Shown here: positions 4,429-5,227 of the stretch, one piece after another
How the letters are laid out: every line of letters begins with the position of its first letter
Position numbering within the stretch: position 1 is the stretch's first letter
DNA from: Escherichia coli
GTDB lineage: Bacteria > Pseudomonadota > Gammaproteobacteria > Enterobacterales > Enterobacteriaceae
Direction: 5' to 3' (one strand)
Length of the DNA: 64,000 nucleotides
Assembly: GCF_044324785.1 (NCBI RefSeq)
Contig: NZ_CP172127.1
The notes under the pieces: generated by a model
Database searches by the model: none
What the model was told of the DNA's origin: nothing
What the model saw: the letters and a program-made list of their open reading frames with translations, nothing else
Program-made: the position numbers and the translations under genes

Positions 4429-4839
4429 ATGAAATTATTACCCGACACACATGTACGGGAGGCATCGTGCTGCCCGTCTCCCGTCACCATCTGGCAGACA
4501 CTGCTCATCCGTCTGCTGGACCAGCACTATGGCCTCACACTGAATGACACACCGTTCGCTGATGAACGTGTGATTGAGCAGCATATTGAGGCCGGCATTT
4601 CACTGTGCGATGCGGTGAACTTTCTCGTTGAAAAATACGCACTGGTACGTACCGACCAGCCGGGATTCAGCGCAGGAGCCCCGTCGCAGTTAATCAACAG
4701 CATCGATATTCTCCGGGCCCGCCGGGCAACAGGCCTGATGACACGTAATAACTACAGAATGGTAAATAACATTACCCTGGGTAGCATCCGGGGGCGAAAC
4801 GATGAAACTTTCCCTGACGCTGGAAGCCGACAGCGTTAA
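4429..4839 (+). CDS. cbtA: Type IV toxin of the CbtA/YeeV/YkfI/YpjF family (cytoskeleton-binding toxin)
   Basis: Start taken at the internal Met MKLLPDTHV; long identical stretch to K-12 YeeV ([54 protein letters not shown]); about 12 residues longer at the C-terminus than YeeV. Confidence 0.85.
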
Positions 4840-5227
4840 CGTACAGGCGCTGAACATGGGGCGAATTGTCGTTGACATTGATGGTGTTGAGCTCACTGAA
4901 CTGATTAACAAGGTCGCTGAAAACGGTTATTCACTCCGCGTGGTGGATGAACGTGACGCTACCGAAACACCGGCGACTTCTGCCAGCTCTCATCAGTTGC
5001 CGGAAGACAATACAGTGATACAGAGCGTGATGCCATTAACCACTGAAACAGCGCTGGATATCCTCATTGCGTGGCTGCAGGACAATATCGACTGCGGGTC
5101 CGGAATTATTTTCGACAACGATGAGGATAAAACGGATTCGGCAGCACTGCTGCCCTGTATCGAACAGGCCAGAGCAGATATCCGCACCCTGCGCCAGCTG
5201 CAGCAGCTTCTGCAACAGAACCGGTGA
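4802..5227 (+). CDS. YeeW-like protein, function unknown
   Basis: 141 aa ORF immediately after cbtA, the position occupied by yeeW in CP4-44; overlaps the cbtA 3' end by 38 nt (an internal Met at 4856 avoids the overlap). Confidence 0.55.

Follow-up and report, generated by a model that had tools for sequence, protein, structure and literature searches.

Why a CbtA-family toxin gene should run past its usual end and into the gene behind it, and whether its product would still be a toxin, are the questions raised by this locus of Escherichia coli, which lies in a 64,000-nucleotide stretch of DNA, hereafter the window. The toxin ORF occupies 4429–4839 on the plus strand, from ATG 4429 to the TAA at 4837–4839 (411 nt, that is, 136 codons and a stop), and its last 38 nt (4802–4839, plus strand) overlap, out of frame, the ORF that begins at 4802. 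A preliminary description had reported a CbtA-like toxin of 136 aa from MKLLPDTHV whose last 38 nt overlap a YeeW-like ORF, and had given lengths of 109–124 aa for the K-12 paralogues; the ORF and the overlap were found exactly as described, and the K-12 genes cbtA, ykfI and ypjF measure 375, 342 and 330 nt (124, 113 and 109 aa), respectively. Two explanations had been put forward there, a drift of frame by which the C-terminus of the toxin is changed and a downstream gene that really starts at its second Met (4856), and it was the first that the alignments bore out. The segment 4429–4839 is very probably a frameshift allele, of natural origin, of a type IV toxin gene in the CbtA family, and the frameshift explanation itself, taken alone, appears almost certain from the sequence comparisons.

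The membership of the toxin in its family is clear. Its product matches Pfam CbtA_toxin (PF06755) over the full length of the profile, with residues 1–112 aligned to positions 1–112 of 112 at 199 bits (cut-off 25); a CbeA/YeeU-family antitoxin gene lies directly upstream on the same strand, and Phe65, the column of which is invariant in the alignments, is present. Absent from the window toxin is the canonical C-terminus, GK(H/Y)P(E/G)AK(Q/R) followed by a stop that overlaps the next ATG. However, this tail does not define membership of CbtA_toxin, because YkfI and YpjF are without it altogether; the canonical tail and the ATGA overlap are typical of a subgroup of 124–126 aa and not of the whole CbtA family.

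The origin of the long C-terminus was traced by aligning the junction with four intact alleles, namely K-12 cbtA, A41, AHS8C65RI and E. coli C. Compared with these, one A is missing in the window from GGGTAAGCAT, leaving GGGTAGCAT, and the window reads GGGT-AGCAT at the corresponding place. The codon for G118 is GGT (4780–4782), and the intact GGT AAG CAT becomes GGT AGC AT, one of the two A's having been lost at 4783, in codon 119 (deletion site 4780–4785, plus strand). With the base put back, the frame reads GGT AAG CAT CCG GGG GCG AAA CGA TGA and encodes ...GKHPGAKR, giving a toxin of 125 aa whose TGA (4803–4805, plus strand) overlaps ATG 4802 as ATGA; in the window, this canonical stop, placed by the intact alleles and by PGAP, is out of frame and read through. 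The intact alleles are 124–125 aa long and end ...GKHP(E/G)AK(R/Q), with the TGA likewise overlapping the next ATG as ATGA, and PGAP annotates the toxin gene of intact relatives at 375–378 nt with a 4-nt overlap with the next gene. According to the translation and the protein alignments, the seven residues KHPGAKR are replaced in the window by a frameshifted tail of 18 codons plus TAA (4783–4839, plus strand). In the closest complete genomes, LH50-c and ACN002, the toxin DNA is identical to that of the window, and PGAP calls the gene 'frameshifted' in both, with the end of the feature at the canonical stop position (L001:3506).

Translation of this allele runs as follows. Owing to the A lost from GGT AAG at codon 119, the ribosome departs from the canonical frame seven codons ahead of the TGA, reads 18 alternative-frame codons across the start of the next gene and halts at the first stop, the TAA at 4837–4839, so that a product of 136 aa results in place of 125 aa. 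The 38-nt overlap arises because the stop of the toxin moves to 4837–4839 while the conserved start of the next gene remains at 4802. Tight ATGA stop/start coupling between the two genes would thereby be lost, and the tail, being an other-frame reading of the conserved downstream N-terminus, would be a sequence without selection of its own.

The 136-aa form is an already catalogued, ordinary allele of a known toxin gene. The exact protein is found on at least 999 public contigs and corresponds to UniProt A0A1M1ISH3_ECOLX, named 'toxin' or 'TA system toxin CbtA family protein'. When the 93-nt junction was compared with 5426 complete E. coli genomes, 20 records matched at 99% or above and 28 more at 95–99%, and the frameshift junction is thus present in about 48 of the 5426; most of the remaining matches fall at 90–95%, and the sampled full-length ones among them span 94 nt, which is the intact form. 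The preliminary description had held that a C-terminus shared by many CbtA homologues would speak against a frame drift, but most cluster representatives in which the C-terminus is present are 124–126 aa long and end GK(H/Y)P(E/G)AK(Q/R), and in the homologue alignments the long tail is common only to other frameshift alleles.

These other alleles indicate that the tail has arisen more than once. Proteins P0003 and P0006 (136 aa) have their shift point at the same place as the window allele, while P0020 (136 aa) has lost a T in CCCTGGG and P0021 of E. fergusonii (133 aa) a G in a G5 run; because the deletion positions differ, P0020 and P0021 represent events independent of that in the window. 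All four end ...RN(N/D)ET(G/F)PD(A/T)GSRQ(H/R), in the alternative frame and at the same TAA as the window, and the backbones of this group of frameshift alleles are 82–90% identical. At the DNA level, the G is missing from the G5 run in E. fergusonii L007 (1800–1925) and the T from CCCTGGG in E. coli L008 (1810–1935), each giving a toxin of 133–136 aa that stops at the same TAA, and the DUF5983 gene that is overlapped in L008 has its full length (162 aa). Three independent 1-nt deletions, those of the window, L007 and L008, therefore lie within 17 nt and lead into one shared frame and one TAA, which shows that the tail is a side effect of reading that frame; variation in its sequence goes only along with that of the overlapping downstream N-terminus. 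Another type of lesion at the toxin/DUF5983 boundary was observed in P0059 (162 aa), in which an apparent deletion removes the junction entirely and joins the toxin in frame with the DUF5983 N-domain (...NNITLVVDIDGVNITELINK...).

Two readings would make an artefact of the extension or of the overlap. Single-base indels are a common type of sequencing error, and the extension might accordingly be an error of sequencing or assembly in the window; however, the missing base belongs to a run of two A's and not to a long homopolymer, and the identical DNA in independent complete genomes, together with the occurrence of the exact protein on all those contigs, ruled this out, its probability being negligible. 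The overlap, in turn, would vanish if the downstream gene began at the in-frame ATG of its second Met (4856), as had been suggested in advance, but the profile, the first 18 residues, the ribosome-binding region and PGAP all favour 4802. The 4802 ORF is matched by the Pfam DUF5983_N profile from residue 4 onward; residues 1–18 are conserved within Escherichia and in homologues of Hafnia alvei and Yersinia kristensenii, the latter having Leu at the position of the second Met; and several differences between E. coli alleles in 4802–4856 are third-position synonymous in the 4802 frame. Moreover, a Shine-Dalgarno-like GGGGG (4790–4794, plus strand), recognised by sequence and alignment, stands 7 nt upstream of ATG 4802, where K-12 has GGAGG, A41 AGAGG and E. 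coli C GGAGA, and PGAP puts the start at the corresponding ATG in all related genomes that were inspected. A start at 4856 is thus highly improbable, that at 4802 is well supported by the comparisons, and the annotated start of the downstream gene should remain at this conserved ATG.

The remaining alternatives accept the frameshift and differ in what it would mean. The tail, or the loss of ATGA coupling, might be adaptive, through attenuation of the toxin or re-tuning of the downstream gene, or the frameshift might be programmed, as three independent 1-nt deletions in the last eight codons with a similar product and the spread of the allele to many isolates could suggest. Such a reading is very unlikely: the deletion site has no slippery heptamer, no frameshift-stimulating RNA structure was found around the junction, the fold of which is no better than that of shuffled sequence (z = -0.31), and the tail follows the variation of the overlapping N-terminus and nothing else. 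In addition, clustering is expected if late frameshifts alone are tolerated, and the homologue search was biased toward the long tail, as the query contained it; enrichment of frameshifts at the 3' end was dropped as evidence for selection because of this biased sample and because late frameshifts are those likeliest to be tolerated. An equally slight chance is given to the idea that loss of the ATGA junction is selected, with recurrent deletions in the last eight codons of cbtA-family genes acting as a simple genetic switch; if this were true, such a switch would weaken the toxin, or else uncouple or re-tune translation of the conserved downstream DUF5983_N/DUF957 protein, and the CbtA/CbeA module would have this protein as a true third partner. 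A dead pseudogene, with the protein inactivated or destabilised by the frameshift and the locus in decay, is a possible but rather unlikely reading, with which the 'frameshifted' label given by PGAP to identical DNA, the further remnants in the island of relatives (an integrase that is truncated and neighbouring genes with frameshifts) and the minority status of the allele among complete genomes are consistent. Against it, the change affects only 7 of 125 residues, at the very end, F65 and the complete Pfam domain are left as they were, shorter paralogues without the altered region are toxic, a GFP fusion at the C-terminus leaves toxicity in place, and the toxin copies of the window, LH50-c and ACN002 have no second lesion.

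A frameshift allele that would probably retain toxicity is thus the preferred reading, though with less assurance than the frameshift itself. The PF06755 domain (1–112) and F65, which is needed for FtsZ interaction in CbtA, YpjF and YkfI (PMC5624674), lie outside the altered region and are unchanged, and the seven terminal residues removed by the disrupted frame all lie outside the Pfam domain. YkfI and YpjF, toxic in experiments (PMC5371832, PMC5624674), end before the shift point at residue 119 in the protein alignment (113 and 109 aa), so the altered region is dispensable in close relatives; on these grounds, an intact domain with F65 and toxic paralogues that stop short of the shift, the toxin is probably still active. 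The toxin fold would be untouched and the new tail a disordered appendage, and the 136-aa protein would most likely still block FtsZ and MreB polymerisation and still be countered by the intact CbeA-type antitoxin (3970–4338). An AlphaFold2 model built on 57 homologues, with a moderate mean pLDDT of 64, gave pLDDT below 50 at residues 121–136; the tail was judged only from this model, because a sequence search of the PDB found no CbtA relative with a solved structure. At position 15 the toxin has Cys where K-12 CbtA has Arg; Arg15 of K-12 CbtA mediates MreB binding, but the Cys-bearing YpjF and YkfI still block elongation (PMC5624674). Harmlessness of C-terminal changes is not guaranteed, since an early study, in the form in which it is cited in PMC5371832, reported no growth inhibition by untagged and C-terminally His-tagged YpjF. 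For annotation, the PGAP pseudogene call may throw away a probably active toxin, and a '136-aa CbtA' should be regarded as a 125-aa toxin with a frameshifted tail and not as a new subfamily.

The downstream ORF (4802–5227, plus strand) encodes 141 aa, in which Pfam and the alignments delimit a DUF5983 N-domain (residues 4–57), a linker and a DUF957-type C-domain (from about residue 77). The N-domain is matched by PF25638 (DUF5983_N) at 103 bits (cut-off 27), residues 4–57 covering profile positions 1–56 of 56, while the C-terminal domain PF19419 carried by full-length DUF5983 members has no match in the 141-aa ORF. The DUF957-type part, about residues 77–141, is 86% identical to WP_000839276.1 of E. 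coli C, and the equivalent stretch in LH50-c, which differs from the window by a few bases near the 3' end, is called 'DUF957' by PGAP; the same part has no Pfam-A match even at E = 10 and no NCBIfam model. The arrangement is an unusual one and differs among relatives. E. coli C and AHS8C65RI have a 162-aa DUF5983 protein (PF25638 and PF19419), then 11 nt and a separate 65-aa DUF957 protein, whereas in the window, A41, LH50-c and ACN002 about 280 nt are absent relative to E. coli C, a stretch that would code for PF19419, the gap and the initial codons of DUF957, and the N-domain runs in frame via a different linker into the DUF957-type domain. In relatives, PGAP splits the equivalent ORF into 'DUF5983, partial' and 'DUF957'.

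Nevertheless, the two-domain DUF5983_N/DUF957 ORF probably encodes a genuine protein and not debris, since two-domain proteins of 137–140 aa form many clusters, one of them with 518 members on 168 contigs, and homologues of 119–121 aa in Hafnia and Yersinia carry both domains. Fusions of all three domains, about 230 aa in length, occur as well (P0180). A 2026 preprint (10.64898/2026.06.09.728211) reports that AntiFam ANF00264 occurs in these three contexts beside cbtA and cbeA and makes the case for a genuine folded domain, and ANF00264 is probably the DUF957-type domain described here. The single-protein form in Hafnia and Yersinia speaks for the DUF957-type domain as a real coding sequence that belongs with CbtA/CbeA modules. 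The frameshift allele itself matters little biologically, and the downstream ORF is the more useful by-product of the analysis.

The module around the toxin gene is well preserved. The type IV antitoxin gene of the CbeA/YeeU family (3970–4338, plus strand), recognised by Pfam and by its relatives, is intact and encodes 122 aa from a GTG start; residues 18–117 match positions 1–100 of 101 of CbeA_antitoxin (PF06154) at 184 bits, and annotations of related genomes give the equivalent gene as a YeeU-family antitoxin. Further upstream of it, Pfam identifies DUF987 and RadC/JAB genes. Between DUF987 and the antitoxin gene, the window has an intact ORF of 214 aa (3276–3920) that gave no Pfam, NCBIfam or PADLOC match; its equivalent bears the annotation 'antitoxin of toxin-antitoxin stability system, frameshifted' in E. 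coli C, ACN002 and LH50-c, whereas AHS8C65RI has an intact copy. On the other side of the toxin, a DUF4942 gene encoding 288 aa (5324–6190, plus strand; Pfam DUF4942, 232 bits) comes next in the conserved module, in the same order as in L006. It may be transcribed separately, as suggested by a terminator-like hairpin found by consensus scan, CCAGCC...GGCTGG (5271–5289) with a T-rich run (5271–5299 in all, plus strand), which lies 3' of the stop of the DUF957-type part, precedes DUF4942 and has conserved counterparts in A41 and E. coli C.

The toxin gene sits in a CP4-44-like island inserted beside cadC in the E. coli chromosome. The core genes on the right-hand side (cadC, cadB, cadA, lysS, dtpC and dcuS) show 99.2% identity to E. 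coli chromosomes, and AHS8C65RI carries this island too, at the same cadC-adjacent site. There, the order is GTPase, DUF932, antirestriction, JAB, DUF987, a protein of about 215 aa to which PGAP gives the name 'antitoxin of toxin-antitoxin stability system', YeeU-type antitoxin and CbtA, followed by DUF5983, DUF957, DUF4942, ParD, ParE, an integrase remnant and cadC. Two overlapping ORFs in the window, 6262–6525 (87 aa) and 6522–6848 (108 aa), correspond in length and position to the ParD antitoxin and the RelE/ParE toxin of AHS8C65RI, and would be a second toxin-antitoxin pair at the edge of the island. The right boundary of the island falls at about 6900–7730, up to cadC (7731–9269), and in relatives a truncated, frameshifted tyrosine-recombinase remnant stands just ahead of cadC. 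At the left end of the module, a GTPase-family ORF of 294 aa (20–904) gave a weak, partial PADLOC match to LeoBC (E = 3.9e-07), probably reflecting similarity of the GTPase domain only; apart from this, none of the seven module proteins compared with PADLOC gave a match. NCBIfam was scanned with five module proteins and had a model for none of them, no Rfam family was found in window positions 1–9300, and no tRNA gene anywhere in the window.

Among known systems, the reference is CbtA (YeeV) of K-12, which belongs to the CbtA/CbeA type IV pair of the CP4-44 cryptic prophage and is 83% identical to the window toxin at the amino acid level. Both have the full PF06755 domain and conserved F65, and CP4-44 and the window share the order RadC/JAB, DUF987, CbeA-type antitoxin, toxin and YeeW-like gene. 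They differ in that the window toxin has 136 aa against 124 aa in K-12 CbtA, with a frameshifted tail after G118 and no ATG-overlapping stop, and in the N-terminal 15 residues, which are of the MK(T/L)LPDTHVRE type in the window and MKTLPVLPGQA in K-12 CbtA. The intact 125-aa alleles of AHS8C65RI (WP_000854721.1) and A41 (WP_240764435.1) are 87–88% identical to the window toxin in protein sequence, and AHS8C65RI also agrees with the window in island, gene order and insertion site. The junction DNA of these two is collinear with that of the window but keeps the A of codon 119, and their toxins, unlike that of the window, end ...GKHP(E/G)AK(R/Q) with the stop in the ATGA overlap. More distant are YkfI of CP4-6 and YpjF of CP4-57, with 58–63% identity to the window toxin, for which the same mode of action has been reported, namely FtsZ binding and cells that become lemon-shaped (PMC5624674, PMC5371832); Cys15 is common to all three toxins, and both paralogues, at 113 and 109 aa, are complete before the point at which the window allele shifts frame.
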